Shown here: in pieces, positions 981-43,136 of the stretch
How the letters are laid out: each line of letters begins with the position of its first letter
Position numbering within the stretch: position 1 is the stretch's first letter
DNA from: Candidatus Poribacteria bacterium
GTDB lineage: Bacteria > Poribacteria > WGA-4E > WGA-3G
DNA: 64,000 nucleotides
NCBI GenBank assembly: GCA_965215265.1
Contig: OZ244048.1
Location: forward strand, 1,792,001-1,856,000
Direction of reading: 5' to 3'
The notes under the pieces: generated by a model
Database searches by the model: none
The model's input: only the letters and a program-made list of their open reading frames with translations
What the model was told of the DNA's origin: nothing
Program-made: the position numbers and the translations under genes

Positions 981-1080
981 AGCGAGAGAGGGATGTAAGG
1001 CGGGGGTGTGTCGTCTCGTGTTCACGAGGCGGTACCCGCCTCCAACCCCTCGTATTTTTAGCCGCGAGTGTTTCGCGGCA

Positions 1081-13370: not shown

Positions 13371-13540
13371 ATTTGTAGACAGGAGCCCAATGCCAGTTGC
13401 TGCTATATTAAATCCCCTACAAATCTCGTCGGAGCCTTCTGATGCTTTGACTTCAAAAGACTATGCCTAAGTAGGCTCTGGCGAGATTTACACACGAGTT
13501 ATTATTACATAAGCGTTGATCGTACGGAGATATACAAAAA
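13371..13540 (+). repeat. Family-A palindromic intergenic element, full-length (~170 bp)
   Basis: caggagccc...aaatctcgtcggagcc...ggctctggcgagattt...ataagcgttgatcgtacggagatatacaaaaa. Confidence 0.85.
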
Positions 13541-13541
13541 G

Positions 13542-14153
13542 ATGAATATCGCAGTTGTTACAGGAGAACACGGTTTTCAGAAAAAAGAATTTGATGCAGT
13601 CTTCCAGAGTATGGACGGCATCCAATTTGTACGTGAAGACTTGGATGTCTTTGTCGATGACCTAAGGCAGGCTGAGTACGATACCGTTGTCTTTTATAAC
13701 TTTCATCGTCCTTATCCGACAGAGGCACAAGCCGAGGCGATTCTCGGTTTAACAGAACGTGGGCAGGGTTTGGCCATCCTGCATCATGCTATCCTCGCGT
13801 TTCCCGAGTGGGATGCATACTCAGAAATCTGTGGAATTCTTGATAGAGATTTCGGGTATCATCCGCGGCAGATGCTCCAAGTGCAGATTGCCGATACAAC
13901 GCATCCGATTACAACTGGGATGACACCATGGGAGATGGGAGACGAGACGTATACCATGGAATCTGCCGAGGAGGGAAGCCAACTGCTTTTGACCGTTGAG
14001 CATCCGAAGAGCATGAACGTTCTGGGATGGGCACGTGAATACGGAAATTCTCGGATTTTCTGTCTACAGAGCGGCCACGACAACGTCACCTTTTCTAACC
14101 CCAACTTCCGAGAGGTCCTTAAGCGAGGCATTCAGTGGGCTGCAAAGCGTTAA
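13542..14153 (+). CDS. ThuA-like (class I glutamine-amidotransferase-like fold) protein
   Basis: GQGLAILHHA, HPIT, DETY, GWAREYGNSRIFCLQSGHD. Confidence 0.85.
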   Translation: MNIAVVTGEHGFQKKEFDAVFQSMDGIQFVREDLDVFVDDLRQAEYDTVVFYNFHRPYPTEAQAEAILGLTERGQGLAILHHAILAFPEWDAYSEICGILDRDFGYHPRQMLQVQIADTTHPITTGMTPWEMGDETYTMESAEEGSQLLLTVEHPKSMNVLGWAREYGNSRIFCLQSGHDNVTFSNPNFREVLKRGIQWAAKR

Positions 14154-15423: not shown

Positions 15424-15615
15424 ATGTTGTGTAGGCCTTCGTCAAGTTGCCAAAATTGTGAAACAGTTACGAGTTGTTATCCTAGCTGTTGCAGTAGTAC
15501 TTCACCTTGTAATAGTTGTAGTGCACATTGTCAAAATCAAGATAGCGATGAATACATGTGCAATGGTTCTTGCCAACCGACTAAGTGCAAGGTTGCGGTG
15601 GCTTCGATTCCCTGA
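15424..15615 (+). CDS. Small Cys/Ser-rich peptide (63 aa, 12 Cys), possibly a 5'-truncated remnant
   Basis: MLCRPSSSCQNCETVTSCYPSCCSSTSPCNSCSAHCQNQDSDEYMCNGSCQPTKC...; ends just before the WD40 RBS. Confidence 0.55.
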   Translation: MLCRPSSSCQNCETVTSCYPSCCSSTSPCNSCSAHCQNQDSDEYMCNGSCQPTKCKVAVASIP

Positions 15616-15637
15616 GAAAAAAAATAGGAGGTCCAAG

Positions 15638-17623
15638 GTGGAAAATACTCCGTTGCAAAAGGTGAGACAAGACATGGGCATCGACAAAGATGTCATGACA
15701 TGGGCTCTGCCAGAAGGTGCAATTGCCCGATTCGGACGAGGTAGAGTCGCGAAGATGGCGTTTGCGCCGAATGGAAACACACTCGCTGTTGGCAGCTGCC
15801 TTGGTGTCTGGCTCTATGATATATCCACCTTGACTCCCTTATGTTTATTTGATACGGAACGCGGCATGGTTTCAGCACTTGCATATTCCCTCAATGGTGT
15901 TTTTATTGCAACCGGTAATTGGGATGGTGACATCAAGATATGGGACGTGCAAAGCAAACGGTGCATTTCCAAAATGAAGCGGAAAGGTCGGTTTGATATG
16001 GCCTCCCACCTCGTTTTTTCACCGGATGGACAACGTCTCGCCTCTTCTGGTGGACGCTACGATGCTGTTTATGTCTGGTGTCCGGAAACCGGGGCACAAA
16101 TTGCGAAATTTGTCGATGAAGCATCCCTGCAACCGCGTCATCGCCCTGGACGCATTCCACTCTCATTTTCGCCTGATGGGAGATTGCTCGCAGGAGCAAC
16201 CCCTAGAAATACTTTTTCTGTTTGGGATCTGGAAACTTGTGAACGTATTGCTTGCGTCACCAGACATACGGATTCTGTCCGTATGCTTCTCTTTTCACCG
16301 TGTGGGCAATTCCTGACTTCCGCGGACCGGGCAGGTGTTTTTCATGAATGGGATGTGAACAAAATTACTGCAAAGGAACCAAGTCCTTGCTTCTCAGTGA
16401 TACCCACTGCCGCGACATCTGTTCAGGCACTCGCTTATTTAACCGACGGCACATTAGTTGCCGCAGGGAAGAATGAAAACACCGTTAGTGTCTGGGATGT
16501 GAAGCATAGAAACACGTTGCGGATTTTAAGAAGCGAATGGTGCCCCAATCCCAATTCGTTCTGCTTTTCATCCAGCGGTTCGCAATTGGCTTTAGTTTGG
16601 AAAGATCAGATTCAAGTGTGGGATATTGGATTCTCCCGAAAGAATACGATTCGTGAACATACGCCAGTGTATGGTGCCGTGACATTTTCACCGGATGGAA
16701 ACACTTTGGCATCAGGGAGTTGGGGCAACGGCATCCGCCTATGGGATGTTGCGCGGTTAGAACCTCAGAAAGCATTTGGAGAGGAATCCGCAATTCGCTC
16801 ACTTGATTTTTCGGCCTGTGGAAATAAACTCGCTTCTGGCTCCTACGATACTGCTGTGAGGATGTGGGACATTAGGAAAGTAGAGACACCCCTTGTTGAG
16901 TTTGCGGCAGATCAGAAATCGATATGGTGCGTCGCGTTTCCTTCAAAAGGTGACACCTTGTTCTGTGCCAATTCAGCAGGCCATCTGTATATGTGGGATA
17001 GGGAACAAAACCGGACTATGTTCCCTATCAGAACAAAGCACATAAAGTCTTTGTCAGTTTCGCCAGATGAAAAAAAGGTGGTGATTGCTTACTTCAACGG
17101 CCCCGCTGAACTCTGGGATGTTGAAAGCAAGCAGTTGATAACAGAGTTATCCTTAGTAAAAGTCAAAAATCGCTCAAAGTATAAAGGCGATACGCACGCA
17201 ATTCAACAATGTCTCCAATGGCAAGAGAAAGATGCAGAAAGCACCCCTATTCAATTGATAGGTCCGATTGTTTTTTCTCCATGTGGTAGCGTCATCGCAG
17301 GAGGGCTATTTAGAGAGATTCGGTTGTGGAATGCGACAACATATCAAATCTATATGGCGATACGTCTGCCTCAGGGATGTCAGAGGCCGGAGGCATTAAC
17401 ATTTTCACCGTGTGGACGCTATCTCGTTTCCGGTGCGTCATGGCAAGGCACTGATAAAGTGTCGATCCGGTTATGGGAGGTTGCCACGGGTGAGAATGTT
17501 ACGACGTTCTGGAGTCACCCGACGGATGTCCAAGACCTAGCGTTTTCGCCGGATAGCACGTTGTTGGCGAGTGGGAGTTTTGATGGCACCATCCTCTTGT
17601 GGGATATGAAGCCTTATCTATAG
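15638..17623 (+). CDS. WD40-repeat protein (copy 1)
   Basis: GTG start after AGGAGG; WALPEGAIARFGRG N-terminal motif, many xFSPDG..LAS...IxxWD repeats, C-terminal GTILLWDMKPYL. Confidence 0.92.
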   Translation: MENTPLQKVRQDMGIDKDVMTWALPEGAIARFGRGRVAKMAFAPNGNTLAVGSCLGVWLYDISTLTPLCLFDTERGMVSALAYSLNGVFIATGNWDGDIKIWDVQSKRCISKMKRKGRFDMASHLVFSPDGQRLASSGGRYDAVYVWCPETGAQIAKFVDEASLQPRHRPGRIPLSFSPDGRLLAGATPRNTFSVWDLETCERIACVTRHTDSVRMLLFSPCGQFLTSADRAGVFHEWDVNKITAKEPSPCFSVIPTAATSVQALAYLTDGTLVAAGKNENTVSVWDVKHRNTLRILRSEWCPNPNSFCFSSSGSQLALVWKDQIQVWDIGFSRKNTIREHTPVYGAVTFSPDGNTLASGSWGNGIRLWDVARLEPQKAFGEESAIRSLDFSACGNKLASGSYDTAVRMWDIRKVETPLVEFAADQKSIWCVAFPSKGDTLFCANSAGHLYMWDREQNRTMFPIRTKHIKSLSVSPDEKKVVIAYFNGPAELWDVESKQLITELSLVKVKNRSKYKGDTHAIQQCLQWQEKDAESTPIQLIGPIVFSPCGSVIAGGLFREIRLWNATTYQIYMAIRLPQGCQRPEALTFSPCGRYLVSGASWQGTDKVSIRLWEVATGENVTTFWSHPTDVQDLAFSPDSTLLASGSFDGTILLWDMKPYL

Positions 17624-17624
17624 C

Positions 17625-17670
17625 ATGAAACGTCATGACGCGACATCTCATCTGTACATCTGGTTTTCAC
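17625..17670 (+). pseudogene. Truncated start of the Cys-rich peptide gene seen at 23800, cut by a repeat fragment
   Basis: atgaaacgtcatgacgcgacatctcatctgtacatctggttttcac is near-identical to 23800-23845. Confidence 0.65.
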
Positions 17671-17746
17671 GCCCGCCCACCCAATTCCTATCAAAACATA
17701 AATAGTTGTTGTGCTGCAGTAGACGAAAAAAAAGGATTAATGTAAG

Positions 17747-19720
17747 ATGAAACAAAATCAAAGACATTTTCAGTCATTGCCCGGTGACAACGGTTTTACG
17801 ACGTGGGCCCTGCCGGAAGGGGCTACAGGTCTATTTGGACAAGGCGATGTATTGGATATGGCATACTCCCCAGATGGCAAGTATCTCGCTGTAGCGACCT
17901 CTATTGGCTTGTGGTGGTATGAATTATCCACGATGTCTCCCGTGGATCTGTGGAATACGGGACAAAGGGTAATTTCCACTATATCCTTTTCCTCTGACAG
18001 TAAATGGATTGCCACAGGGGCATCTGATGGAAGCATCAAGGTGTGGGATGTTTCAAGCCGCGTCTGCATCACGCAGGTAACACGATGGAAGCAACAGAAA
18101 CAAAATCAACTGTTGCATCAAAATGAGATTTCTTGTATCACCTTCTCATCCGACAATCAACGAATTGCTGTGTCCGGCAAGCGCGATTATATCGTTGACC
18201 TATGGCACCCTGAAACCGGTGAACGATTTGGGGAAATCAACGGCGATTCTCAAATAGAACTACGACAGTACTGTGGACTTACCCGACCTGTTGCTTTTTC
18301 ACCTGACAGTCAACTGCTTGCATGTTTAAGCCCACACGGCACAAATAATCCAACGTCACCCGAAGCCGAATTCATCTCGGTGTGGGCTATTTCTAGCGGT
18401 GAGTGTGTCGCGACGCTTAACAAATATACTCCCGGTTCTATGTGGTATTCCCTCTGTTTTTCGCCTTGTGGCAGTTACCTTATTGCCAGCGGCAATGTAG
18501 AGGATAAAGTGCAGATATGGGATGCAAGCAGTTGGGAACAGATTAGAACGCTTCCAGATTATGGGGCAAATTGGATAATACCTTCTTATTCTCCTAAGAC
18601 GGTTCTGCATGTAGCGGCGATGTTTGATGATACCAATACCATCGACGTGTGGGACGTAGAACACTCTCAGAAACTCTGGACTTGCCAGACCCCTAAGGAA
18701 ATTTCTGATGTCCTATTTTTTAATGGGACACAGTTAGCAGTAAATAGTGGACTTGAATTTAAAGTGTGGGCAGTTAAAAATAACCAACCCCGGACTATAC
18801 ATCATACACACCTCTCCTTAGTTCACTCGCTAGAGTTTTCATCTGATGGGAAAACTCTAGCGTGTGGATATAGGCGTGATGGAATTCTACTATGGAATAT
18901 TGACATTCCTTCACACCCGCAAAGCGTTTTCAAGCCGCCTGGTATAAAACATCATGTTTGCGCGTTCACCAATGAAAAAATCTATACCGCATGTGTTGAC
19001 GAAAACACCATTAAGGTATGGGAAGTTGGAGGTAGTGCACCTTTTGCCCAAATCACACCAGAGAATCCGCCAACGTATTCGGCATTTGCATTCGCACCTG
19101 TAACCAACCTCCTTGCCTCCGGGGATGACGAAGGCACCGTGAGAGTCTGGGATGTAACACGAGGAGTGCTGCTCTATACCTTCACAAAGCACACCACCAC
19201 AATGCTACGTTTAGTGTTTAGCCTTGATGGGAAATTCCTTGCGAGTTTTGCAAACTACGGACCCGATGCCCGACTCTGGAATATTGAAAGTGGACAGGAA
19301 ATTTCCAATTTTCCAGGAGATCGCATTGAAACGATTGCCTTTTCGCCTTGTGGGACCTTGATTGCCGCTGACACAGAAAAAGAAATTCTTGTGTGGGATA
19401 TCACCTCTTCTGAAACCCAACTCACAATCCCTAAACCAGAAGAGTGGATGGATAATGGCCTCTGGCAGCTTGCGTTTGCTTTTTCACCAGACGGTCGATA
19501 CTTGGCTTCAGGTTCGTGCTGCGATTTAGGTATGGTGAAAATACCTGTGCGGTTATGGGACATGGCAACAGGCGAGAATCTTGCTACTTTCTGGGGGCAC
19601 ACAAGGAGTATTTCCGCGCTCTCCTTTTCACCGGATGGGATGCTTTTGGCAAGTGGGAGTGATGACGGCACCATCCTCTTGTGGGATATGAAGCCTTACA
19701 TACAACATGAAACGTCATGA
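17747..19720 (+). CDS. WD40-repeat protein (copy 2)
   Basis: WALPEGATGLFGQG, WD repeats, C-terminal GTILLWDMKPYIQHETS overlapping the permease start. Confidence 0.92.
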   Translation: MKQNQRHFQSLPGDNGFTTWALPEGATGLFGQGDVLDMAYSPDGKYLAVATSIGLWWYELSTMSPVDLWNTGQRVISTISFSSDSKWIATGASDGSIKVWDVSSRVCITQVTRWKQQKQNQLLHQNEISCITFSSDNQRIAVSGKRDYIVDLWHPETGERFGEINGDSQIELRQYCGLTRPVAFSPDSQLLACLSPHGTNNPTSPEAEFISVWAISSGECVATLNKYTPGSMWYSLCFSPCGSYLIASGNVEDKVQIWDASSWEQIRTLPDYGANWIIPSYSPKTVLHVAAMFDDTNTIDVWDVEHSQKLWTCQTPKEISDVLFFNGTQLAVNSGLEFKVWAVKNNQPRTIHHTHLSLVHSLEFSSDGKTLACGYRRDGILLWNIDIPSHPQSVFKPPGIKHHVCAFTNEKIYTACVDENTIKVWEVGGSAPFAQITPENPPTYSAFAFAPVTNLLASGDDEGTVRVWDVTRGVLLYTFTKHTTTMLRLVFSLDGKFLASFANYGPDARLWNIESGQEISNFPGDRIETIAFSPCGTLIAADTEKEILVWDITSSETQLTIPKPEEWMDNGLWQLAFAFSPDGRYLASGSCCDLGMVKIPVRLWDMATGENLATFWGHTRSISALSFSPDGMLLASGSDDGTILLWDMKPYIQHETS

Positions 19721-20969
19721 CGCGATTGCCGCTGGAATTGCACATCTGGCACAAAATCGGTTACGCGCTGGGTTATCTATCCTCGGCATCTTCATCGGGA
19801 TTACGAGTGTACTTTGCATGATAGCCATCGGCAATGGGGCGAAAAAAATCATCGCAGATGGTCTGGAAACGCTTGGCGGTGTAGACCAAGTGCAATTCCG
19901 AAACATTTATAGAACTTACCGAAGAGGCCGCTGGCAGCGAATAACCGAACGCCTCAAATTCGACGATGCACTCGCAATTGAAGCTGAATGTCCAAATATC
20001 CGATTTGTCTTGCCGAAAAATGAACGCTACAGTGTTTTTGTCACCCGGCAAGAAGGCAGCCAAGCTTACCCGATTCTGGAAGGTGTCACAGCAGACTACG
20101 CTCTCGGAATGCACTGGCGTGTCCAAGAAGGCCGATTTCTTTCAGAAAATGATATTATCCAAGCGATGCAAGTCTGTGTTTTGGGTGCCGACGTTGCTAC
20201 GGAGTTGTTTGGAGAAATGAAACCGATTGGGCAAGAGGTGAAGATTCGGTATTATTGGCGGCAAACACCCGTCCGGATGCGTGTTGTGGGGGTGATGAAA
20301 CCTAAGGGCCAAGGGGTTAACTCTACTTGGACACTTGATAATGTCATCTGTGTGCCCTTGACGACGCACCAACAGCGGCTTTCAGGCTATTCTTATGTAG
20401 AACGCATTACGGTTTTCACCCAAAAGTCTGTGGACATGTCTGCGGTTATTGCCTCAGCGCGTGCGGTGATTCGCAAAAGACATCGTAACCGAGACGATTT
20501 TGTCTCCCATTGGGTCCCCACAGGCACAGTGAAAAGGCTAGAACATATCCAAAGGGTGATAAAAATTGCCTTGGGTGGGATAGCAGGTTTCTCGTTGTTT
20601 GTGAGTGGTATCGGTATCATGAACATCTGCCTCGTCTCGGTAGGGGAAAAGACGCGTGAGATAGGGTTGCGAAAGGCGGTTGGGGCGAAACGGATTGATA
20701 TTTTCTGGCAATTCTTAGCTGAGTCGATATGTCTCTGTATGTGTGGTGGCACCCTCGGTATTGCGGGCGGCTGGTTGGCGGCACACGGCATGGCAGAGCT
20801 TGCTGTCCACATTGTGCCGATTGTGCCGGTGTGGCCTGTCGTGCTTTCTTTGCCGTGGCTATTCACGGCTATTCTGTTTTCATTTTTCATGGGTATGAGT
20901 TTTGGTGTCTACCCGGCGATGCGGGCGGCACGACTAGCCCCGATGGACGCACTTCGAACAGAGAACTAG
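19707..20969 (+). CDS. MacB/FtsX-like ABC transporter permease (copy 1)
   Basis: RAGLSILGIFIG, periplasmic core, GIGIMNI..VSVGEKTREIGLRKAVGA, YPAMRAARLAP. Confidence 0.93.
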   Translation: MKRHDAIAAGIAHLAQNRLRAGLSILGIFIGITSVLCMIAIGNGAKKIIADGLETLGGVDQVQFRNIYRTYRRGRWQRITERLKFDDALAIEAECPNIRFVLPKNERYSVFVTRQEGSQAYPILEGVTADYALGMHWRVQEGRFLSENDIIQAMQVCVLGADVATELFGEMKPIGQEVKIRYYWRQTPVRMRVVGVMKPKGQGVNSTWTLDNVICVPLTTHQQRLSGYSYVERITVFTQKSVDMSAVIASARAVIRKRHRNRDDFVSHWVPTGTVKRLEHIQRVIKIALGGIAGFSLFVSGIGIMNICLVSVGEKTREIGLRKAVGAKRIDIFWQFLAESICLCMCGGTLGIAGGWLAAHGMAELAVHIVPIVPVWPVVLSLPWLFTAILFSFFMGMSFGVYPAMRAARLAPMDALRTEN

Positions 20970-21016
20970 GACAGAGTAGTACTCAGGGGTTCGCTCCCCC
21001 TGCAGAGAAACAAGAT

Positions 21017-21352
21017 CTTTTCGTATATCTCCGTACCATCAAGGTTTTTTGTATATTTAAGCCCTATAAACGTTTTTGTTTTGATCGCTCGTGTATAAAT
21101 CTCGTTTTTTTGTATCTCTTGGTACCATCAAGGGTTATGTATTGTTAAATCCGATGTTGGCAGGTTCGGTATTCTTTATCTCTCCGTCAGGAGAGATAAG
21201 ATTACCTTATCCTGCCAATCTATAGATAAATCTCGTCGGAGGTTAACTAGGTAATGTCTTTAAAAATCTAAACATCAGAACCCTCTGGCGAGATTTGTAA
21301 AGGGTTTAACATTGCAGCAGCCTTGTTGCGGGCTGCACTATACGAAAAAAGG
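21017..21352 (-). repeat. Composite family-A cluster with nested family-B hairpin (21158-21227)
   Basis: Three A-end fragments (tttt[c/t]gtat...), tggcagg...cctgcca-atctatagat, then an A core. Confidence 0.85.
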
Positions 21353-21845
21353 CACAACTGCCCTTAGGTTTTATAAGAGTCTGCCTGGTTGTCGTTGTTG
21401 AAAACGCAGATGCTTAGCGATGCATGGGTGTATTGAAGAGATAATAATAGGCTATGACGATAATGGAATCCTTTGGTGATTATTCAGATAAAAAAACAGC
21501 ATTTTGAACCTGAACGGAAAATCTGTCTAATATTTAGATTCATTGCAAAAAAAATTGCATTTCTCATTGTGTTTTCGTATATCTCCGTACCCTCAACGTC
21601 TATGTTTTTGATAGCCTGCAATGGCGATTGTCCAGAATACGAGGATTATTAAAACTGTATCCAAACTGTCACCTAAAGGGTTCTCAGTGTTCTGAAATCG
21701 CTTTGCTCCGTTTTTTCTTTCAAAACCTTGTGATTTCGTGTTATTCTAGTGTCCTAAACTGATCTGGCTGTACAAATCGGGGCAGTTTGGTATAAAGTGG
21801 CAGCTTAGGTAGGCTGTAATTCCCTGAGAAAAGCATCTAACGCAA

Positions 21846-23798
21846 ATGATAAACCGTGCTTCCAATAGCAAAAGTACCAGGTGGGCATTACCGAACGGGG
21901 CAATGGGTCGATTAGGCCGTGGGATTGTGGATGATTTAGCATTCTCACCCGATGGCTGCTATCTTGCTGTTGGTACCTCTGTAGGACTTTGGTTGTATGA
22001 ACTGTCCACACTACTGCCTATTGCTCTCTGGGAAACAGAGCGCGGGTTAGTTTCCGCGCTCGCTTTCTCACAAACTGGAGAATGGATTGCAACAGGAAAT
22101 TGGGATGGTGCGGCTAAGATCTTGGATGCACAAAGTGGTAGATGCGTCACTAAAATCGCTAGAGGTACAAGGCGAGCGGCTATTTCCACCCTCGCCTTCT
22201 CTCCGACTAAACGCTATCTCGCTGCATCTTCAAGACAGGACGATGTAGTTTACGTCTGGCACTCTGAAACGGGTACACAAATTGCGAAGTTTTCACAAGA
22301 ACGGAAAAATAGGGGGCGGATGCCGACTAGAGCCCTGACCTTTTCGCCTGATGGGAATCTGCTCGCATGTGTAAGTGATAAAGAACCTGATGGCATAGGA
22401 GAAAGCATCAAAGTATGGGAATTAGAAACTGGCAAATGCATTGCCTTACTCCTTGGACATGTTTCTTTTGTCTATGCAATCTCTTTTTCACCATGCGGGC
22501 GTTTCCTCGCTTCCGGTGGACGTGACTTGACGGTTAGAATATGGGATGTGACACAAGGACAATTAAAGGAGGTCCATTCTTATTATGGTCTCCATCGCAT
22601 GCTACCAGCCTATTCCCGTGATGGAGTTCTATATGCAGCAGGGGTGGCTGATAACACGATATCAGTGTGGAATTTGACACTTGGTGAAAAACTCACTACC
22701 TTCAAACATCAAGGGACTATCCGTGTTGTCCGTTTTTCGGATAATCGGTTTCGATTGGCTGTATCTGGCAGGTACGATTTTAAAATATGGGATGCGAATA
22801 ATCCTGATGATGTCTCTTCTGTTTCCGGACACGACCGGTCACATATCCCCTATTTTTTGAGGTTTTCCGCCAATGGGAAGATACTTGCAAGTGCTGGGCG
22901 CGGACCTGCTATTTGCTGGAATGTTGTGCAGAAACAACCACAACGAACCTTGCTTCGCCCAAAAGCAGCAATCCAATCTCTCTATATTTCCGCCGATGGA
23001 AACATACACGCGTTGGGTAGTAAAGGAAACATGTGCTACCTATGGGATGTGGTAACTGATGAAACAATGGCTACGCTTATTGTACACGAAAAAGTTGGAT
23101 ACGCAGTAGCAGTAGCACCAATAGGTGAACCTTGGGCGAGTGCGGACATAGGTGGAAAACTGTACGTATGGAACAGTAACGGAAAACAGACAGTGCTTAT
23201 TGGGCATACTGCTACAATAGCTGCCCTTGACTTCGCGCCGGACGGAAAGCAACTCGCGAGTGCCTCAAGGGATAAAACAGCACGGATATGGGATGTCGCG
23301 TCTGGTGAAGAGATTACCTCGCTTGCCTTAACACCGCTGTTAGATACTACCTTGTATAAAGGAGATGTACATCAACTCCAAAAACGGTGTAAATCGTTAG
23401 CCAAAGCTGCATCGTCACAGAACCCAAAGCCTATTGAAGCAATCGCTTTTTCATCGCACGGAGAGCACATCGCCGGTGGACTCTGGCGCGAGATACGCTT
23501 ATGGGATGCAACAACGTATAAACCTTGTATGGCAATCTTGCTACCAGAAGGGTGTCAGCGTCCGTATGCGTTAGCGTTTTCGCCGTGTGGACGCTATCTC
23601 GCCTCTGGTGCTTGGTGGCAAGGCACGGAGAAAGTCTCCATCCGGTTATGGGAAGTGGCCACGGGTGAAAATATCGCCACCTTCTGGGGACACCCGACGG
23701 ATGTCCAAGACTTAGCGTTTTCACCGGATGGCACGTTGTTGGCGAGTGGGAGTTTTGATGGCACCATCCTCTTGTGGGATATGAAGCCTTATCTATAG
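21846..23798 (+). CDS. WD40-repeat protein (copy 3)
   Basis: WALPNGAMGRLGRG, WD repeats, C-terminal GTILLWDMKPYL. Confidence 0.92.
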   Translation: MINRASNSKSTRWALPNGAMGRLGRGIVDDLAFSPDGCYLAVGTSVGLWLYELSTLLPIALWETERGLVSALAFSQTGEWIATGNWDGAAKILDAQSGRCVTKIARGTRRAAISTLAFSPTKRYLAASSRQDDVVYVWHSETGTQIAKFSQERKNRGRMPTRALTFSPDGNLLACVSDKEPDGIGESIKVWELETGKCIALLLGHVSFVYAISFSPCGRFLASGGRDLTVRIWDVTQGQLKEVHSYYGLHRMLPAYSRDGVLYAAGVADNTISVWNLTLGEKLTTFKHQGTIRVVRFSDNRFRLAVSGRYDFKIWDANNPDDVSSVSGHDRSHIPYFLRFSANGKILASAGRGPAICWNVVQKQPQRTLLRPKAAIQSLYISADGNIHALGSKGNMCYLWDVVTDETMATLIVHEKVGYAVAVAPIGEPWASADIGGKLYVWNSNGKQTVLIGHTATIAALDFAPDGKQLASASRDKTARIWDVASGEEITSLALTPLLDTTLYKGDVHQLQKRCKSLAKAASSQNPKPIEAIAFSSHGEHIAGGLWREIRLWDATTYKPCMAILLPEGCQRPYALAFSPCGRYLASGAWWQGTEKVSIRLWEVATGENIATFWGHPTDVQDLAFSPDGTLLASGSFDGTILLWDMKPYL

Positions 23799-23799
23799 T

Positions 23800-24137
23800 A
23801 TGAAACGTCATGACGCGACATCTCATCTGCACATCTGGCTTTCACTGGCGGTGTTATTTTCGCGGGTGCGTTTGATGGGTTTGTTGTAAAAACGGAAGCC
23901 ACGAGCTGCTGTGGTGGAGGAACAGATGTTTCTCTTTCCTTTACCAATGGTTGTGGAAGTTGTGACGCTGACGATTGTTCGTGCAGCTCATCAAGCGGAT
24001 GCAATGGTACTCGCGGATGTACGGATACTAGCAGTCAAGGCTGTCTGGATGCGAATGGAGTAAACCAGTGTGGAGGTAAGTGTTCAAATCAGTGTGGTGC
24101 TACGAGCGACTGCAGCACTACAAGTCCCTATCATTAA
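23800..24137 (+). pseudogene. Cys-rich secreted-type peptide gene with out-of-frame start (not in the ORF track)
   Basis: Stop-free frame 23814-24137: ...AHLAFTGGVIFAGAFDGFVVKTEATSCCGGGTDVSLSFTNGCGSCDADDCSCSSSSGCNGTRGCTDTSSQGCLDANGVNQCGGKCSNQCGATSDCSTTSPYH (13 Cys); ATGs at 23800 and 23810 are in other frames. Confidence 0.7.
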
Positions 24138-24244
24138 TGTGTGTTGCCAGCAGCCTCGCCTAATTTATGATTCAGGCGCGTGAGCAACCTCTCTGACTTA
24201 GCCTAATCCAAGGAAGGTTTTCTATAAGCCTATTCTTACGTTTG

Positions 24245-24430
24245 GTTTTTTGTAGATTTCAGCACGACAAAGGCTGATGTGGCAGGATAGGTATTCTTTT
24301 TCTGTCCATGAGAAAAGATTACCTTTTACCTGCCATCTATAGATTTTGGTAAAACCTTTACAAATCTCGTCTGAGGGTCCCGATGTTTTGATTCAAAACA
24401 TCAAACGGCTCTCACGAAATTTGTGCTGTT
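24245..24430 (+). repeat. Family-A fragments with nested family-B hairpin (24280-24335)
   Basis: tggcaggataggtattc...accttttacctgcca-tctatagat; aaatctcgtctgag. Confidence 0.75.
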
Positions 24431-24495
24431 GAATGGTTATTATAAAATCCGTTTTTGTTGTGCTGGTGTAATTATGAAAAAGGGGAGAGACTTTT

Positions 24496-26521
24496 ATGCA
24501 ATGGAAAAATCTATTCACCTCGGTACAGTTGCCTGAGAGTGCTAGTCATCGGGCCACATTGGCACTCCCAGAGGGAACGATTGCCCGGCTCGGGCAAGGC
24601 ACTGTAGAAGACGTGGTCTTTACGCCGGACGGTACCGCTCTGATAGTTGGTACTAGTATAGGGCTGTGGTGGTATGAACTTGAATCCCAGTCACCCAATG
24701 CCTTGCAAGAAACCGAACAAGGAGGCGTTTATACGCTCTCCATTTCTAGAAATAATCGGTGGATTGCCACCGGGTCCGGAAACAATCGTTTGAAAATGTG
24801 GGATATGCACCGTGGTATGCATGTCGCATGGGAAGATTGCCAGAATAAGTTTCATGCAAGATGCGCTTCTACATTTGCCCCGGATGGACAACGTTTTGCT
24901 GTTTTTGCCAGAGACATTGATACTGTCTATCTCGTGCATCCAGCAACGGGGATGCAATCCGCCGCTTTTGGAAGCAGCAGCCCGATACGTACGCGCCGCC
25001 GGGCTGTGAGCCCGCTAGTTTTTTCAGTTGATAGTCAACTGTTAGCGGTTGTGAGTCCAAGAGATATAGATGCATCTAGCGACATTGTCTCTGTGTGGCA
25101 TGTGGAGAGTGGTGAACGCATCGCTGGCTTCACGAAATATCCTGACTTTGTGTACGGTCTCTGCTTTTCGCCGTGTGGACGGTACCTTGCTGTCGGGTGT
25201 TTCAGTGGAATCTTGAGGGTCTGGGATATCTACACAGGAAAATTGGAGATGGCACGCACCGATTTTGGGCGATATCGAATACTTCCAAACTATTTGCCGG
25301 ATGGACAACTGATTGCTACTGGGCTTTATCAGGCATACAATCAAAAGCCTATAGACGTATGGGCGGTAGAAAAAAGCGAGAAACTGGCGGAACTTGACAT
25401 TCATGGACACGTCAAATTTGCTCGTTTTTTCGGAGGCTGGGACACACTTGGCCGTTGCTAGTGACTCTGGCGACATCAAAATCTGGAAAACCGATAGGCT
25501 GATTACCCCGGTTTCAGCCATTTATCATTACACTGGAGTTGCCAGTTCCTTGGGCTTTACGTCGGATAGCAAAATGTTGGTAGCGGCCTATTGGTATGAT
25601 AGCATACGGATATGGAATCTTGAAAAGCAACAGTCCCAGTATCCGCTTGAAACGAAGGCACTCTCGAAATATAGTTTTTTGCAGGTGTCAACTGGTTCTG
25701 AGCTCTTCTTTATAGGAGTCAGTGAGAATACCATCAAGGTATGGAAGGTTGGAAACAGTAAAGTTCCTGTTGCCAAGTTTTCGACAGATGAAAATGTGTG
25801 GTGGCGAGCCGTAGCGTTATCCCCAAAAACTGACCTGTTAGTAAGCGGGTTCAGAAATGGGCGGCTCCTCGTCTGGGATGTACGAACTGGAGATAAATTA
25901 CAGACGCTTACAACAGATACAATTGGAATTCGGGCAGTAGTGTTTTTAGCAGATGGAAAACGGCTTGCGATGACTTCACGAAATGCAACTCAAATCTGGG
26001 ATATTGAGACAGGAAAACAGAGTAGAATCTTACCAGAATCCCCCGTGTTAGATGGAGATATGTATAAAGGGAAAACTCACGACATTCAAGAGAGACTAAA
26101 AGCACTGTCAAAAGGAAATAAATGTCTCTGTTCTCGCTCTATTCAAACACTCTATTCTTCGCCGTGTGGTAAGTTCATTGGTGGTGGGATGCCAGAAGAA
26201 ATCCTACTGTGGAATACTACAACTTATGAAATATGTATGGTTTTACTCCTACCAGCGGGGCAGAGACATCAGTCTGCGTTGACATTTTCGCGTTGTGGGC
26301 GGTACCTTGCTTTTGACACAACGGATGTAGGAACCGCGGAGGTGTCCATCATGGTATGGGAAGTGGCCACGGGTGAAAATATCGCCACCTTCTGGGGACA
26401 CCCGACGGATGTCCAAGACTTAGCATTTTCACCAGATGGCACGTTGTTGGCAAGTGGGAGTTATGATGGCACCATCCTATTGTGGGATATGAAGCCTTAC
26501 ATACAACATGAAACGTCATGA
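24496..26521 (+). pseudogene. WD40-repeat protein (copy 4), split by one extra T in a T6 run at 25425-25430
   Basis: ORFs 24496..25461 and 25394..26521 join as KFARFSEAGTHLAV if one T is removed; same LPEG N-terminus and DMKPYIQHETS C-terminus as copy 2. Confidence 0.85.
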
Positions 26522-27773
26522 CACGATTGCCACTGGAATTGCACATCTGGCACAAAATAGACTTCGTGCAGGATTGTCTATCCTCGGTATTTTTGTTGGG
26601 ATTGCAAGCGTGCTTTGCATGATAGCAATCGGCGACGGCGCGAAAGAAATCATAGAGAAAGACATTGAAACACTTGGAGGTGCCAACCAAGTACAATTCT
26701 GGACACGAGTCGGTTTTTGGAAACGCGGCCGGCTTATGCGCCGGACCACGGAGCGATACACCCTTGAAGACGTTTATGAGATTGAGGCAGCATGTCCAGA
26801 TGTGTTGTTTGTCTTGCCCAAAATATCTCGATACCGAGGCAGCACCACCAGTCGACACGGTGGGCAAGCACGTCCTTATGTGGAGGGTGTGACAGCAGAC
26901 TACGCCCACGGCATGCAATGGACAGTCCAACAGGGTCGTTTTTTCACGGAAGAAGAGATTGATACGGCCGCACAACTGTGTGTGCTCGGTTCCGAAGTGG
27001 CGGTAGATCTGTTTGGCGACATGCCCGCGTTAGGCCACGAGATAAAAATCAAGCTGCGCTGGCGGCAATCTCCGACCCGCTTGCGTGTTGTCGGTATCAT
27101 GGCACCCAAAGGAAGAAGCCTTCGCTACTATAGGTCCCTGGATGATATTGTCTGTGTGCCCATAACAACGCACCAGCAAAGGCTCTCAGGGCTCCGTTAC
27201 ATTGAGGGGATGAACGTCTTTTTTCAAAAGGATGCGGATGTCTACAAGGTGATTGATTCTGTGCGGCAGGTTCTTCGGACGAGACACCGTGGCACGGATG
27301 ACTTTGTGGGGTATTGGATACCGAAACGGACTGTCAAAAGGCTAGAACACATCCAAAAGGTGATAAAAATCGCTTTGGGTGGCATGGCGGGTTTCTCGTT
27401 GTTTGTGAGTGGTATCGGTATCATGAACATCTGCCTCGTCTCGGTAGGGGAAAAGACGCGTGAGATAGGGTTGCGAAAGGCGGTTGGGGCGAAACGGATT
27501 GATATTTTCTGGCAATTCTTAGCCGAGTCGATATGTCTCTGTGTATGTGGTGGAATCTTCGGTATTGCGGGCGGCTGGTGTGCGGCACACGGCATGGCCC
27601 GACTTGCCTTACGTCTCTTGCCCATTGTAGAGGAGTGGCCGGTGGTTATCTCTTTCCCATGGATACTGACTTCGGTTCTTTTTTCACTCGTGATGGGCGT
27701 AAGTTTTGGTGTCTACCCGGCGATGCGGGCGGCGCGGCTAGCCCCGATGGACGCACTTCGAACAGAGAACTAA
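26508..27773 (+). CDS. MacB/FtsX-like ABC transporter permease (copy 2)
   Basis: Same motifs as copy 1; ends MDALRTEN. Confidence 0.93.
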   Translation: MKRHDTIATGIAHLAQNRLRAGLSILGIFVGIASVLCMIAIGDGAKEIIEKDIETLGGANQVQFWTRVGFWKRGRLMRRTTERYTLEDVYEIEAACPDVLFVLPKISRYRGSTTSRHGGQARPYVEGVTADYAHGMQWTVQQGRFFTEEEIDTAAQLCVLGSEVAVDLFGDMPALGHEIKIKLRWRQSPTRLRVVGIMAPKGRSLRYYRSLDDIVCVPITTHQQRLSGLRYIEGMNVFFQKDADVYKVIDSVRQVLRTRHRGTDDFVGYWIPKRTVKRLEHIQKVIKIALGGMAGFSLFVSGIGIMNICLVSVGEKTREIGLRKAVGAKRIDIFWQFLAESICLCVCGGIFGIAGGWCAAHGMARLALRLLPIVEEWPVVISFPWILTSVLFSLVMGVSFGVYPAMRAARLAPMDALRTEN

Positions 27774-27916
27774 GGAAGCCTCATCCAGTTGAACAAAAAA
27801 AAGAAGATCGGAGATTCGCAGGAATTAGAGTCAATACATCGAATGGCTCAGACGAGATTTTCACAGTCATTGACAATACATAAGGCGTTATCGGGCTGAA
27901 ATATACAAACGAGTGG

Positions 27917-28297
27917 ATGAAGGGCACACTTTCAGACACCGCAGTTGTTGCTGCAAACTGGGACCTTGGCAGTCAACTCAACGTCCTCGGCGGTGTCAAA
28001 ACCGTCATAGATCAAGATCACTACATCCAACATTGGATACATCTCTACAACGAGCATGTCCGTGATGCCACCGATGCACGGGACACGTTAGAATTCCTAA
28101 AAACCCACGGCGCAACACATCTGATGCTAATGCAAAGACAATCTCCTGAGGCATTTCTGCAAGGTGAGCTGAGTGGTGCATTTGTGCCGGTCTACCCAAC
28201 TGAAGACTTCACCGTGGCAGATGTCAAGGTGTGGAAGATTCACTATCCACCTGACATCCAACCCCAGCCGAAATATCTCGCAACAGCACCTGAGTAA
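27917..28297 (+). pseudogene. C-terminal soluble-domain fragment of an STT3/AglB-like oligosaccharyltransferase homolog
   Basis: (EW)MKGTLSDTAVVAANWDLGSQL...KTVID resembles the WWDYG-motif region; no TM part; begins right after a family-A fragment. Confidence 0.55.
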
Positions 28298-28774
28298 AAA
28301 CCAATACGGTCCGGTACGGTAAGGTGGGGAGCTGCTCGTAGGAGATTGCTCCTACGAGCAGGATTTGGGCGGGTGAGAGCACGTGAGGGAAGAGTAGTAC
28401 TCAGGGGTTCGCTCTCCCTGCAGAGAAACAAGATCTTTTTGTATATCTCCGTACCATCAAGGTTTATGTTTTGTGAAGTCCTGCCAATCTATAGACGCGA
28501 TTCAGTTTTTTGACTTAAAGTCTACATCTTGATAAAATATCTCCAATCTGTTATACTCAATGATGTTGAGGTAAGGGCGAGGTTCCTTCGCCTCCTGAAT
28601 GAGCTTTCTACCGGGCTCTACGAGGAGGTCTCGCCTACCGGTGGAAGTTGGTGCCCACCCACCCAAATCCACAGGCAATGCGCTGAGACCATCGCACAGT
28701 GCCTCGTCACTGCGATGGCAATTTTCAAAGGTGGGCGTGGCGAGTTTGTCCCTACGAGTGGACATCAGCGGGAA

Positions 28775-29007
28775 TTCATAGATTTCAGCACAACAAAGAC
28801 TTATTTAATATACACCTTAGCACAAATCTCGCTTTTTCGTCTATAGGCACCCAATGACGCTCTATGTTTTGTAAAAATCTGTGTAAATCTCGTCGGAGCC
28901 GTCTGGTGTTTTGACTTTAAAGACATTACCTAGAGCGTCTCCGACGAGTTTTACACACGAGTACTCATGACATAAGCGTTGATGGTACGGAGATATACAA
29001 AAAAACA
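28775..29007 (+). repeat. Family-A element, near-identical to part of the 52775-53070 cluster
   Basis: ccaatgacgctctatgttttgtaaaa...gagtactcatgacataagcgttgatggtac. Confidence 0.85.
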
Positions 29008-29010
29008 AAA

Positions 29011-29931
29011 ATGAAAAACGTTGCATTCTTACTTTTTTTGTTAGTGCTCATAAGCGCACAACCGAGTAAAGCAATTCGTCAAGGGGCCGCCAATGCTAAC
29101 ATCTTTATCAAAGCCTACGAGCAGAGCGGCGAATTCGGCAAAGTGGCTCTCTGGCATGAAGCAGCCGTGGCGTGTGTAGACGTGATTTCAGTTCCACTGA
29201 ACCAGATTGCCTATACGTACTACACACAGCATGGGTATCTTAAGTGGGCAAGGCGGGCTGAAAAAGAGGCACTAGAAATTCAAGCACAACGCGAGTATCA
29301 TCTGACACAAGCGATGGCAGCCTGGGAAAAATCAGAAGTCAACGGGTGTGTCCGCCCATTGCTGTTTATGTCAGAGCATGCGAAGATTGCGAAGTTCATG
29401 GCGACGTGGGCACGCTACTATCCGGATAGATTTCATGAATTCGGTATCTATCCGACCTTCTTCAAGCCATTGCGGGAGCGTGCCGAACAAAACGCAGATT
29501 ACGTCAAGGCACTGCAGATTGAGGCAGACGCTGCGGAGATGTGCGCGGGGCTTTATGAAAAGATTCCTATCGCTTACGGTTTGAAAGGTTATGAAAAATG
29601 CAGGGACGCGTATCGCCAGCACGCTGCACGGCTCCGAGTACTCGCACAGCAAAATCCGAAAGCCTTACCACCGGAGGCAGACAAAGGCAAAGTGCTTGTG
29701 GATGACTTTCGTGCAAGCCCACCACAAGGCAGGCAAAATCTCATCCGTCGCATTGCAAAATCAGATGAGCGCGTCAAACAAGCATTAACTGGGCTACAAG
29801 GTATTCGAGAATATGCACATTTTCAAGGGTCTGCTTGGACTGTCAGTTTCTATAATCACGGTTGGGGCAACCTTGCTGTCGCAATCGTTGACGACAAAAC
29901 CGGAGTCGTTCTGCACGTGCTAAAGCATTAG
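29011..29931 (+). CDS. Secreted hypothetical protein (helical)
   Basis: 306-aa ORF with signal peptide MKNVAFLLFLLVLISAQPSKA; no family recognised. Confidence 0.75.
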   Translation: MKNVAFLLFLLVLISAQPSKAIRQGAANANIFIKAYEQSGEFGKVALWHEAAVACVDVISVPLNQIAYTYYTQHGYLKWARRAEKEALEIQAQREYHLTQAMAAWEKSEVNGCVRPLLFMSEHAKIAKFMATWARYYPDRFHEFGIYPTFFKPLRERAEQNADYVKALQIEADAAEMCAGLYEKIPIAYGLKGYEKCRDAYRQHAARLRVLAQQNPKALPPEADKGKVLVDDFRASPPQGRQNLIRRIAKSDERVKQALTGLQGIREYAHFQGSAWTVSFYNHGWGNLAVAIVDDKTGVVLHVLKH

Positions 29932-30068
29932 CCAAGACATCTCCACTGCTACGGAATATGTATACAAAACTGAACCGAAGAACATTACCAAAATGACATT
30001 AGCCAAAACGTCTCTGACTAGATGAACATACGTACGTGAACACGAACGAGGTATTATCAATTCTATTC

Positions 30069-33000
30069 ATGAAAAAGTGGATGGTGGTTCTTTTTTTTAG
30101 CGTTTCCGTTCCTGTAGAAGCGGTCCATATCACACCGGGTGAATTGCTCATTCGTTTAACGCCCGAGGCAGCTGCGGATTCGCAACGTTTGCAAGCGGAC
30201 GCGCCGATAGCCGTGCTACACGCTACGCTTATGGTAGAATCCTTGCGTCCCCTTTTTACGTATCTGGCACGCCCTGCCCTTCAGCTTAACCTAACGCGCA
30301 CCTATCTGCTTCGATTCTCGCCGGACGTGCCCTTGAAGACCATTAAAGCTGCTTATGCCGAGAGTCCACTCATCGAGGCGGTAGAATTTAACTACCTACG
30401 TTCAACCTTCGCCTCAAACGAGGTCCCCAATGACCCGAGATATCCCGAACAGTGGAATTTACCCCTCATGAAATTGCCCCAAGCATGGGCGATTGAGAAA
30501 GGTGATAAAAGGGTTATCATCGCGATTATCGACTCCGGAATTGATTATACACACCCCGACTTAGCACCCAAAACCTGGGTAAACCCCCACGAAATCCCCC
30601 ATAACGGGCTTGATGACGACCGGAACGGCTATGTGGATGATATCCACGGCTGGGATTTCACCGATGCACCCACACTCCAAGCAGAAGGCGATTTCACGGA
30701 AGGCGATAACGAACCCATTGACGAATCCGGGCACGGCACCCACGTTGCCGGCATCGCCGGTGCAATGGTAGGTAACGGCATCGGTATCGCCGGCGTTGCA
30801 TGGCATTGTCCGCTGATGCCCATTCGCGCAGGACTTTCACTCGGCGGCAGTGCACGCATGCAAGATGACGACTCGGCTGCAGCCATTGTCTATGCCGTGG
30901 ATAATGGGGCCAGCATTATCAATATGAGTTGGGGCAGTGAACAGAGTTCTTTCATCATCCAAGATGCCATCGATTACGCCCATGCCCGCGGGGCAGTCTT
31001 AGTCGCTGCAGCCGGCAATTCACAGAAAGCCGCCGCGATCTTCCCTGCCGCCTATACCAAAGTCATCGCAGTCGCGTCCACCGAACAGAATCAACTACGG
31101 TTCTATCAATCAAACTTCGGAGCCACCGTAGATATTGCCGCACCCGGAAACGTCATTCTGAGCACACAGATTCAAAACCGGTACCGGTTGCTTACCGGAA
31201 CTTCTATGGCGGCACCGCATGTTGCTGGTGTCGCAGCACTCATCCGCTCAAAACGGCCTGCGTTGACGCATGAAGAGATTCGGCAAATTCTGATTAACAC
31301 CGCTGATCCGGTGCTGAAGGAGGATAGCGATGAGTTAGATGTGAAATTTGTCGGTGCCGGCACTGTCAATGCCGAGCGTGCCTTGTTAGCAAGCAGCGCG
31401 TTACAAGCACGTATCCTCGCACCGGAAACGAATCAGGGCGGCTCGGATAGAATTGTCATTGTGGGAACCGCCGGCGGCTATAAGTTTGAGAGGTGGCAAT
31501 TAAGTTATGGCGCATCTACTGTGCCGAGTCTGTTTACGCCCTTCACGAGCTCGGAATCGGAGCAGAAAATAGCAGAACAGTTGACAATCTGGGAAACAGC
31601 GGCTGTACCCGAAGGCGTTTACACCGTGCGTTTGACTGTCACGGCTACCGATGGTAGGCAAACCCACGACCAGGTCGTTCTCACAGTGGATAGGACACCG
31701 CCCCGGGTGACTGCACTCACCGCCACCGAAACGTTTTTTCGCAACGGGGCCATCGCAGTGTTCACATGGGCAACCGACGATGTGACGCGGAATACTCTTT
31801 ATTATCGACGCAAAAGCCAACTCGCACCCTTCGCACGAATTGAAGGAAGCGAGTTAGGAACATCGCATGTGCTGTCTGCGGAGTTGGCAGCAGGCACTTA
31901 TCAGTTTTTTGTTCTGTCCCAGAATACCGTCGGCTTACAAACCACTGAAGATAACGGCGGAACATATTACCCCCTGGAAATAAAACCTAGCTTCTTCTCC
32001 GCCAATGGGTTTGATGCAGAACCACTCTCTATGAATCAAAGCATAAACGGCTCTGACGAGATATACACAGGAATTCACAACGCATCAGCCTTTAACGGGC
32101 TCCAGTCTACGAAAAAACAGAACACGAGTCTGCACCTCGCAAACGTCACAGCCGATTTTGACGGCGATGGCTTGCCTGAAATTGTCGGCAAACCTATACA
32201 CGATGCACCACACCCACTACTTTCCCTCTATGAGCGGCTCCCCACCGGAACCTATCAACTCGTGCAGCACCTGTCAATTGTAGATAGCACCACACACCTC
32301 AATCAACTTGACGCAGCCACGTTTACACCATGGGATGTATCCGACACAGATAACGACGGTTTGTTAGAGATACTTGCTAGCGACGACAACCGTACGTTTC
32401 TGCTGGAACAAATTAAAGAACTAGAAACGTTCAAGATGCAAGAAATCTGGGAAACGCCGTTTCTTTCTGGGGGTATCATCACGGATTTAGATGGTGACGG
32501 GTTGGCTGAAATTGTCGGGGCAGATAACAATAATGACCGGCTCCTCATATTTGAGAATCGAGGCAATAACCAGTACGAACAGACGGTTTCTCTCCACAAC
32601 GAAACAGAGGGCTCCAATGTGTTTGGGCACCACTTTGCAATTGACGACTTTAATGCTGATGGAAAACTTGAGCTCGTTGCTGGGGATAGTGAAGGTGAAC
32701 TTTTCATCTATACGGCATCTGCAAACGACAACGTCCACCTGCAGTGGCAGACACGACTCAAAATCACGGAGCTTACGCAGTTTGCAGCAGGCGACTTAAC
32801 CGGCAACGGCAAACCAGAATTTGTCGTGGGCGGCACCCTCGTGCCAGAGTCTCTGCCAGCTGCCTTTCCCCTCTGGAAATTCATCGTATGGACGCATACA
32901 GCTCACGGCTACGTGCCGCTCTGGGAGCACGCCATCGCACCCTATCGCCGCTCAGCAAACAGCGTCCGCATCGCAGATGTAGATGGCGACACACAAACAG

Positions 33001-41340: not shown

Positions 41341-41344
41341 AAAA

Positions 41345-43120: not shown

Positions 43121-43136
43121 GGCATCTGTCATCGGT

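Follow-up and report, generated by a model that had tools for sequence, protein, structure and literature searches.

What does a duplicated set of WD40 and permease genes, strewn with pieces of small cysteine-rich peptide genes, stand for in an uncultured bacterium? The question is raised by positions 15424-28465 (forward strand) of a 64,000-nucleotide (nt) stretch of contig OZ244048.1 (positions 1,792,001 to 1,856,000), here called the window, from a Candidatus Poribacteria bacterium. Its genome is a single contig of 4.83 Mb, to which the genome-wide repeat counts given below refer. An earlier note had proposed at this place a peptide export and modification system made of four gene types: Cys-rich peptide, WD40 protein, MacB-like permease and STT3-like glycosyltransferase. 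Our comparison with related genomes indicates that the copies in the window are decayed and not a working system, while sister lineages keep the cassette intact. We read the window as a tandemly duplicated, partly decayed copy of a lineage-specific operon that would secrete and modify peptides, a reading drawn from sequence comparison to which we give about an even chance of being right.

The composition of the intact cassette can be taken from the relatives (loci are cited as L and genomes as G with a number). The order is a regulator, the peptide, a WD40 protein or, in a minority of cassettes, an unrelated protein of about 250 amino acids (aa), the permease, the STT3-like enzyme and, often, a small CDP-alcohol phosphatidyltransferase; it was seen in L054, L066, L068 and L105-L120. 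In L054, a sigma-70-type factor is followed by a 107-aa peptide, a 249-aa protein without Pfam family, the permease, the STT3 (PF02516, 53.6 bits), the CDP-alcohol phosphatidyltransferase and a GNAT acetyltransferase. L066 starts with a 326-aa sigma-54 activator that lacks a sensor domain and continues with a 119-aa peptide, a 645-aa WD40 protein, the permease, the STT3 (60.1 bits) and the CDP-alcohol phosphatidyltransferase. Gene order, strand and stop/start overlaps are constant across genera. Among 40 loci picked by their peptide match alone, which hold 51 peptide genes, the next gene encodes a WD40 protein in 42 cases, the 250-aa protein in five and neither in three, and one peptide gene stands at a contig end. 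For the 39 peptide genes with at least 7.5 kb of downstream sequence, we found a permease in 25 cases, a GT-C enzyme (glycosyltransferase of the C fold, STT3 or PMT_2) in 22 and the full combination of WD40, permease and GT-C enzyme in 16. Peptide, permease and STT3 stand in one same-strand row in at least seven genomes (G171, G131, G150, G151, G145, G139, G161), and the 17 best STT3 matches (at least 71% identity) almost all adjoin a permease. The earlier note had made its proposal depend on the four gene types occurring together elsewhere. The neighbourhood analysis and the search for intact peptide and STT3 genes revealed a recurrent same-strand and often overlapping cassette in many related genomes; the four types do co-occur, so the proposal survives this check.

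Among the genomes searched, the cassette is restricted to one family of Candidatus Poribacteria (f1). A profile of four peptides detected the peptide family in 55 of the 176 genomes that make up the phylum set; all 55 belong to f1, and the 64 genomes of other families gave no match (0/64). The permease subfamily (E <=1e-140) is present in 72/176 genomes, likewise in f1 only, and the titles of all close relatives of the first window permease name Candidatus Poribacteria or an 'uncultured bacterium' metagenome-assembled genome. STT3 relatives (E <=1e-60) are found in 95/176 genomes, with many paralogs per genome.

The peptides form a real hypervariable family with a secretion-type leader, as judged from sequence features of 151 distinct members, and the variable Cys-rich secreted-type peptides of the earlier note are thereby borne out. 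The leader follows the consensus M-x-K/R-N-F-x-x-x-P-N-x-x-G-x-L-M-I-x-L-L-F-x-G-G-x-V-F-A-G-A-F-D-G-F-V-V-E-T-E-A. After it come S-C-C-G-G, a further CC pair in many of the members, and a tail without conserved framework. A [FYM][DN]GF motif is present in 97/151 members. All 97 carry a hydrophobic stretch of 17 residues before the motif; the N-end is net-positive in 96, the motif is followed by an acidic stretch in 94, and positions -3 and -1 are occupied by small residues in 81. We infer from these features a Sec signal of N-in/C-out orientation that signal peptidase I would cleave; a lipobox next to the hydrophobic stretch was not found in the family alignment. Pairwise identity amounts to about 45-53% in the leaders vs about 30% in the tails, corresponding to a conserved leader with a variable core. 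In the 92 tails, whose median length is 84.5 residues, Cys accounts for 17%, Ser for 15%, Gly for 14% and Asp for 8%; CxC, CC and CxxC runs are numerous and aromatic residues scarce. Peptides that precede the 250-aa protein share, by inspection, one short basic tail type and differ in their leaders. A search in 5.8 billion proteins delivered 158 peptide clusters, and none of the 120 clusters listed has a Pfam family; their only name is 'hypothetical protein' of Candidatus Poribacteria.

The gene next to the peptide encodes in most cases a large beta-propeller protein. The window WD40s match Pfam WD40 with E values of 1e-55 to 3e-73. The AlphaFold2 model of WD40-2 (pLDDT 84.3, pTM 0.85) has 56 strands, fitting two seven-bladed propellers, and its Foldseek matches include the tandem-propeller proteins 2ymu and 1nr0 and UTP-type double propellers. 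Since no signal sequence was seen at the N-ends of the WD40s, the prediction of cytoplasmic double propellers is supported. Conservation is highest in the N-terminal ~150 and C-terminal ~135 residues, the middle being variable, and paralogs are 25-50% identical, compared to about 65% for the permeases. WD40-1 shares 57-58% identity with the peptide-linked WD40s of L112 and L118. For the 250-aa protein that takes the WD40 position in other cassettes, the AlphaFold2 model was unusable (pLDDT 46 from a 6-row alignment), a comparison with PDB sequences gave chance-level coiled-coil matches only, and the ESM Atlas returned only unnamed clusters (0.90-0.91).

Both window permeases are recognised by Pfam as MacB_PCD (E 3e-37 and 1e-34) and FtsX (E 4e-17 and 6e-19). 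Residues 7-418 align to positions ~257-663 of MacB (phmmer, E 1e-46), which comprise the membrane and periplasmic part without the nucleotide-binding domain. MacB is known to take the Sec-exported, disulfide-bonded enterotoxin STII in the periplasm and to expel it via MacA-TolC (PMC5985334), and MacAB-TolC with STII may by analogy serve as the closest working model for the cassette permease. Lipoprotein extractors are also found among the relatives of MacB (PMC12646458).

The cassette STT3s of the relatives reach 53.6, 60.1 and 64.1 bits with Pfam PF02516, for a gathering cut-off of 24.5. In an alignment of 14 Poribacteria STT3 paralogs, D40, D154-R-D156 and E337 (in T/I-x-E-L) are invariant, residues which we take to be the two DXD motifs and the TIXE/SVSE glutamate. 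Two DXD motifs and a TIXE motif have been described for AglB and PglB, in which WWDYG builds the Ser/Thr pocket for the sequon (PMC8342417). The WWDYG position, located in the cassette type by a marginal phmmer match to the C-terminal domain of yeast Stt3 (E 0.6), the only one among PDB sequences, holds Asp in 0/8 cassette-type enzymes. Their motif is x-W-[S/G]-[F/Y/S]-G (EWSFG, GWSSG, RWGFG, RWSFG, GWSYG, RWGFG, EWGFG, RWGFG), and within the aligned set WWDYG is intact only in a 911-aa paralog. Given the invariant acidic motifs, the lost Asp and the lack of sequon enrichment in the peptide tails, catalysis was probably kept and the choice of acceptor changed in the cassette STT3. Classical N-glycosylation of the peptides is doubtful because sequons are unenriched and the Ser/Thr-pocket motif is degenerate. 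The idea of possibly glycosylated peptides is hence supported as far as a GT-C glycosyltransferase belongs to the intact cassette, and weakened by these two observations. In a variant seen in L141 and at 3.93 Mb of the own genome, a PMT_2 enzyme stands between WD40 and permease and the peptides have Pro/Thr-rich linkers, a suggestive combination that rests on few cases. STT3-like paralogs are expanded in f1 genomes, with up to 35 first-look candidates in G014 and including subfamilies of ~675 aa and ~800 aa with NWDYG, HWAYG or Asp-less motifs.

Upstream of the cassette, a sigma-54 activator or a sigma-70-type factor is encoded in part of the loci. In the activator of the L066 type, the AAA+ domain begins at residue 16, and the only other domain is a helix-turn-helix (HTH). 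A sigma-54 element, TGGCAC-N5-TTGC, was detected 149-269 nt 5' of the peptide gene in 8/24 loci. For the window, a search for such promoters gave matches with one mismatch only; those in the cassette lie inside coding sequence and none is intergenic. The peptide genes of relatives are preceded by good AAGGAG ribosome sites. A conserved hairpin in the 5' untranslated region (GAGACGTG ... CACGTCTC) is located just before the peptide ribosome site in L107, L108, L110-L112, L114-L117 and L120.

Against this background, the window shows the system in decay, since its genome retains a single intact peptide gene (L016:11118-11516, with a WD40, a PMT_2 gene and a permease fragment behind it) besides remnants; such remnants precede three other WD40s of the genome. 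Besides four WD40 double-propeller genes, of which one is frameshifted, and two MacB/FtsX permeases, the cassette region (Table 1) contains two 5' stubs of permease genes, two remnants of Cys-rich peptides without a start and one fragment of an STT3.

Table 1. Features of the cassette region and the repeats that border it.
Feature	Position in window	Strand	Evidence
Cys-rich peptide remnant, tail without leader	15424..15615	+	Translation; tail resembling the C-terminal region of intact L123 and L124 peptides
WD40-1, double propeller	15638..17623	+	Pfam WD40 and propeller families
Permease 5' stub 1 (MKRHDATSHL...)	17625..17705	+	DNA alignment with true permease starts
WD40-2, two seven-bladed propellers	17747..19720	+	Pfam, AlphaFold2 model, Foldseek
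MacB-type permease 1, without nucleotide-binding domain	19707..20969	+	MacB_PCD and FtsX
Unit-end block, copy 1	20968..21047		Repeat D10
Genome-wide intergenic repeat copies, not cassette-specific	21018..21617		Repeat D8
WD40-3, double propeller	21846..23798	+	Pfam; 45.6% identity to WD40-1
Permease 5' stub 2	23800..23889	+	DNA alignment with true permease starts
Cys-rich peptide gene without first ~18 codons	23814..24137	+	Stop-to-stop frame
WD40-4, frameshift within 25394-25461	24496..26521	+	Overlapping open reading frames 24496-25461 and 25394-26521
MacB-type permease 2	26508..27773	+	Pfam; 68% identity to permease 1
Cassette-type STT3-like fragment, C-terminal 126 aa	27917..28297	+	NWDLG at WWDYG position
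Unit-end block, copy 2	28386..28465		Repeat D10

The two parallel units that the earlier note had recognised are real with regard to the layout of WD40 and permease genes on the forward strand; the peptide 'stubs' and an STT3 after both units do not belong to the picture. WD40 and permease genes overlap in both units, as had been stated, by 14 nt (19707-19720 for WD40-2 and permease 1, 26508-26521 for WD40-4 and permease 2). The motif noticed before the first WD40 of each unit (15607 and 21820) was found again as attccctgagaaaa (repeat D13), directly 5' of WD40-1 and WD40-3 and with exactly two copies in the genome. The common block likewise noticed behind both units (~20973 and ~28391) is an 80-nt repeat whose copies are 95% identical and whose core occurs only twice genome-wide. 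The pieces that follow the first WD40 of each unit had been taken for stubs of a Cys-peptide gene, but are the beginning of a permease gene, about 13 codons long. When the 3' ends of the four WD40 genes are aligned as DNA, about 125 near-identical bases are seen to run into the permease start, and these ~13 codons are all that is left of a permease after WD40-1 and WD40-3. Family-related peptide remnants are present in both units, as claimed; both lack a start, and the one in front of WD40-1, which has no paralog in a blastp search of the own genome, has lost its leader as well. The frame behind stub 2 aligns to the family from leader position 19 on (E 1e-31), contains no ATG, GTG or TTG start and is fused to the stub out of frame. 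In unit 1, the peptide gene behind stub 1 is deleted almost wholly. The STT3 fragment after unit 2 is 80% identical to residues 548-673 of the full-length Pfam-STT3 protein of L054 and homologous to the 714-aa and 911-aa STT3 paralogs of the own genome; consisting of the last 126 residues only, it is without the Pfam STT3 membrane domain. After unit 1, tblastn detected no STT3 remnant, so this part of the claim applies to unit 2 alone.

The near-identity of both stubs suggests that the deletion which joined a permease start to the peptide gene of the next cassette preceded the duplication of the unit. Deletions would thus have fused permease starts to the following peptide gene, the unit would then have been duplicated in tandem, and one WD40 would have been frameshifted and the STT3 cut to its last 126 codons. 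The frameshift in WD40-4 could be compared between sequencing runs of separate studies (X1, X5, X6 and X8, of which X1 is possibly the source sample). Contigs of X1 and X5 match the window and one base at 25425 is absent in X6 and X8, pointing to a strain-level lesion. Permease 5' stubs straight after a WD40 were also seen in other Poribacteria (L067 4526-4687, L069 4529-4690, L058 11985-12428), so this junction appears to break recurrently. For WD40-1, the likely start is a GTG located 7 nt after AGGAGG, and the longer open reading frame from 15419 was rejected as an over-extension. An A-run at 15617, just 5' of this ribosome site, is polymorphic in length, being one base shorter in runs X6 and X8. 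Further STT3 fragments lie, in surroundings otherwise unrelated to the cassette, in the window at 37926-38194 (L054 residues 217-306) and, weakly matching, at 4168-4344 (residues 59-116).

A second repeat family is not specific to the cassette. It occupies the stretches 13409-13549, 21018-21617, 24350-24398, 27827-27920, 28436-28481 and 28873-29012 of the window and covers much of 21018-21617, 24350-24398 and 27827-28481 within or beside the units. Its 14-mers GTACGGAGATATAC and AAATCTCGTCGGAG have 185 and 209 copies in the genome, and 25 of the 185 copies of the former stand 19-40 nt 5' of the start of an open reading frame. In four runs, reads cover this repeat 20-40x as deeply as the DNA beside it. 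The repeat may be an element like a miniature inverted-repeat transposable element or a repetitive extragenic palindrome that carries a ribosome site, and one copy (D7, D12) precedes the STT3 fragment.

In the proposed operon, the peptide would enter the periplasm through Sec and there be modified by the GT-C enzyme, outside the classical sequon. The permease would handle the peptide from the periplasmic side with an ATPase encoded elsewhere, as MacAB-TolC does with STII. The WD40 protein would be a partner matched to the peptide type, as chaperone, regulator or immunity protein, which is the least certain step. A more far-reaching version, which we regard as rather unlikely, pictures a conotoxin-like arsenal: dozens of rapidly diversifying Cys-rich peptides, each inherited in one module with its own cytoplasmic WD40 or other beta-rich partner, would be served by one constant machine. 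The partner would then recognise the peptide type and dock the peptide or its regulator to that machine, an ATPase-less MacB permease together with an STT3 re-specified to glycosylate a non-sequon site.

Several observations weigh against the secretion and modification operon. Of the window genes, three WD40s and the two permeases have remained intact though the genome has only one intact peptide gene, so that they may work without a local peptide. No cognate nucleotide-binding domain, fused or adjacent, is present in the window or in the cassettes of relatives, and the domain scan of the cassette genes agrees with the earlier statement that neither an ATPase nor an adaptor is encoded; the cassette has no outer-membrane duct either, a genome-wide search for TolC or adaptors not having been made. 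The sole nearby ATPase (11055-11978) is of the DrrA type and stands beside an ABC-2 permease. Seven stand-alone LolD-like ATPases are encoded elsewhere in the genome (216-288 bits, below the cut-off of 307.75), and a HlyD-type protein stands beside three other permease paralogs at 176 kb. As other MacB-like permeases of the genome have no neighbouring ATPase either, the gap is not special to the cassette. N-X-S/T sequons occur in 54/92 peptide tails vs 57.9 +/- 4.1 in shuffles. The number of Cys is even in 53 and odd in 39 of the 92 peptides, which does not imply an all-disulfide fold. Similarity of the tail and of the adjacent WD40 is correlated with a Spearman coefficient of 0.15 (36 modules, 630 pairs), driven by near-orthologous modules, and we do not claim co-evolution. 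Permeases stand alone in 12/24 loci selected by permease, and in genus g3 tandem peptide-WD40 arrays exist without permease or STT3 (L134, L137, L139, L143, L144). Such arrays indicate that the WD40 is tied first to the peptide; the dedicated WD40-permease pairs of the earlier note are backed by adjacent and overlapping genes, but not by these two sets of loci. Finally, related genomes are not independent samples and the co-occurrence counts are descriptive only.

Some of these observations would fit other explanations. The peptides might stay on the surface or in the periplasm, glycosylated or binding metal like metallothioneins, with a permease that is a LolCDE-like extractor or only loosely linked. 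The long hydrophobic stretch, unusual for a cleaved signal peptide, the Cys-rich tails with their CxC, CC and CxxC runs and few aromatics, the frequent odd Cys counts and the extractors among MacB relatives (PMC12646458) speak for it; an A-x-A-like site directly behind the hydrophobic stretch in 81/97, the absence of an adjacent lipobox and a hypervariability unusual for a metal buffer make it unlikely on balance. Slightly less probable is a signalling or envelope-stress module of the Psp kind, in which the WD40 or the 250-aa coiled-coil protein restrains the sensor-less sigma-54 activator, the peptide is the sensor, and permease and GT-C enzyme bring about a controlled remodelling of the envelope. 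PspF consists of AAA+ and HTH domains only, and the 326-aa activator has the same architecture; moreover, the sigma-54 promoter stands before the peptide gene in a third of the loci (8/24), the peptide is a single-pass membrane-type protein and the 250-aa protein begins with a coiled coil. However, neither the 250-aa protein nor the WD40 matches Pfam PspA/IM30 at E values up to 0.01, a hypervariable Cys-rich tail of 85 residues and tandem arrays are unexpected for a sensor, a sigma-70-type factor replaces the activator in other cassettes, and the window has neither activator nor promoter.

Could the copies in the window still work? The peptide frame behind stub 2 might be translated from a rare start or by frameshifting from the MKRHD stub, whose ATG lies 14 nt upstream in a different frame, and the STT3 piece from a leader borne by the repeat, which is also found in front of the intact gene at 14367 (D12); in addition, most of the large genes are undamaged. 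But about 18 residues are missing from the start of this peptide's leader, among them the positive N-end, the STT3 piece is without any transmembrane and catalytic parts, and the peptide of unit 1 is almost wholly lost, so we consider this very improbable. The least probable explanation, in our judgement, is that there is no functional unit at all and that 'eukaryote-like' WD40s, orphan permeases and STT3 paralogs, all expanded in these genomes, collect in islands prone to recombination. In favour of it, the own genome has ~30 WD40 paralogs and ~20 matches to the permease, STT3 paralogs are numerous in each genome, half of the permease loci (12/24) hold the permease alone, and the window is strewn with stubs, fragments and repeats; it is at odds with an order, strand and overlaps fixed across genera, a WD40 next after the peptide in 42/51, a distinct STT3 subfamily (at least 71% identity) found almost only beside the permease, and a shared promoter upstream.

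The secretion and modification operon can be set beside known systems. With MacAB-TolC/STII it has in common a small Sec-exported, Cys-containing peptide and a MacB-fold permease with a large periplasmic domain (PMC5985334). It differs in the absence of a fused or adjacent ATPase, of a MacA adaptor and of a TolC gene; in addition, its peptide is encoded in the same operon and hypervariable, and its WD40 and GT-C enzyme are without counterpart. Gene clusters of ribosomally synthesised and post-translationally modified peptides or bacteriocins, such as the glycocins sublancin and glycocin F, likewise join a conserved leader and variable Cys-rich core, a glycosyltransferase and an ABC-type component in one operon. 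Here the leader is Sec-like instead of double-glycine, no C39 peptidase transporter is present, and the enzyme is a membrane GT-C with a periplasmic active site and not a cytoplasmic GT-A, its modification of the peptide being predicted. Like PglB and AglB, the cassette type belongs to Pfam STT3 and has the two acidic motifs as well as a TIXE-like Glu; it differs in the missing Asp (0/8) at the WWDYG position, the unenriched sequons of the presumed substrate and the many paralogs per genome. Conotoxin precursors of cone snails resemble the peptides in their conserved signal or leader, hypervariable Cys framework and many paralogs, although they come from another kingdom without homology and the analogy concerns the evolutionary pattern only. 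The abundance of WD40 domains in Poribacteria has been reported for the eukaryote-like proteins of sponge symbionts (PMC3909097); the passages of that paper on these proteins treat abundance and Por-type sorting domains and make no link to a peptide, permease or STT3. In the literature searched we found no published description of the cassette, in line with the earlier note, which knew of no system of such composition; supplementary tables were outside the scope, and Table S9 of PMC3909097 may list these WD40s. The cassette is of the kind that combines a leader-core peptide, a tailoring enzyme and an ABC component, with parts that are unprecedented.

Beyond the cassette, the window carries a Pup-proteasome set at 39128-46594, which encodes a proteasomal AAA ATPase that bears OB domains, two members of the Pup-ligase family and two subunits of the proteasome. 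A subtilase of 1409 aa at 30036-34265 combines FG-GAP repeats with a weakly matching C-terminal sorting domain of type IX secretion. At 1068-3965, three FGE-sulfatase stretches were recognised in a protein of 965 aa, together with a weak match to dockerin.

Poribacteria are among the dominant uncultured symbionts of sponges, and their many WD40 proteins had no genomic context that hinted at a function. The cassette ties part of them to a hypervariable, secreted-type family of Cys-rich peptides, and its permease and glycosyltransferase are testable in a heterologous host. STT3 paralogs that keep the catalytic motifs without the sequon pocket represent a natural experiment in the acceptor specificity of oligosaccharyltransferases. 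Should the arsenal version be true, the cassette would represent a peptide secretion and modification system of a new class, in which a bacterial WD40 acts as the specificity subunit. Provided that they arrive at the host or at competitors, the peptides would be candidates for signalling or antagonism between symbiont and host or among symbionts.

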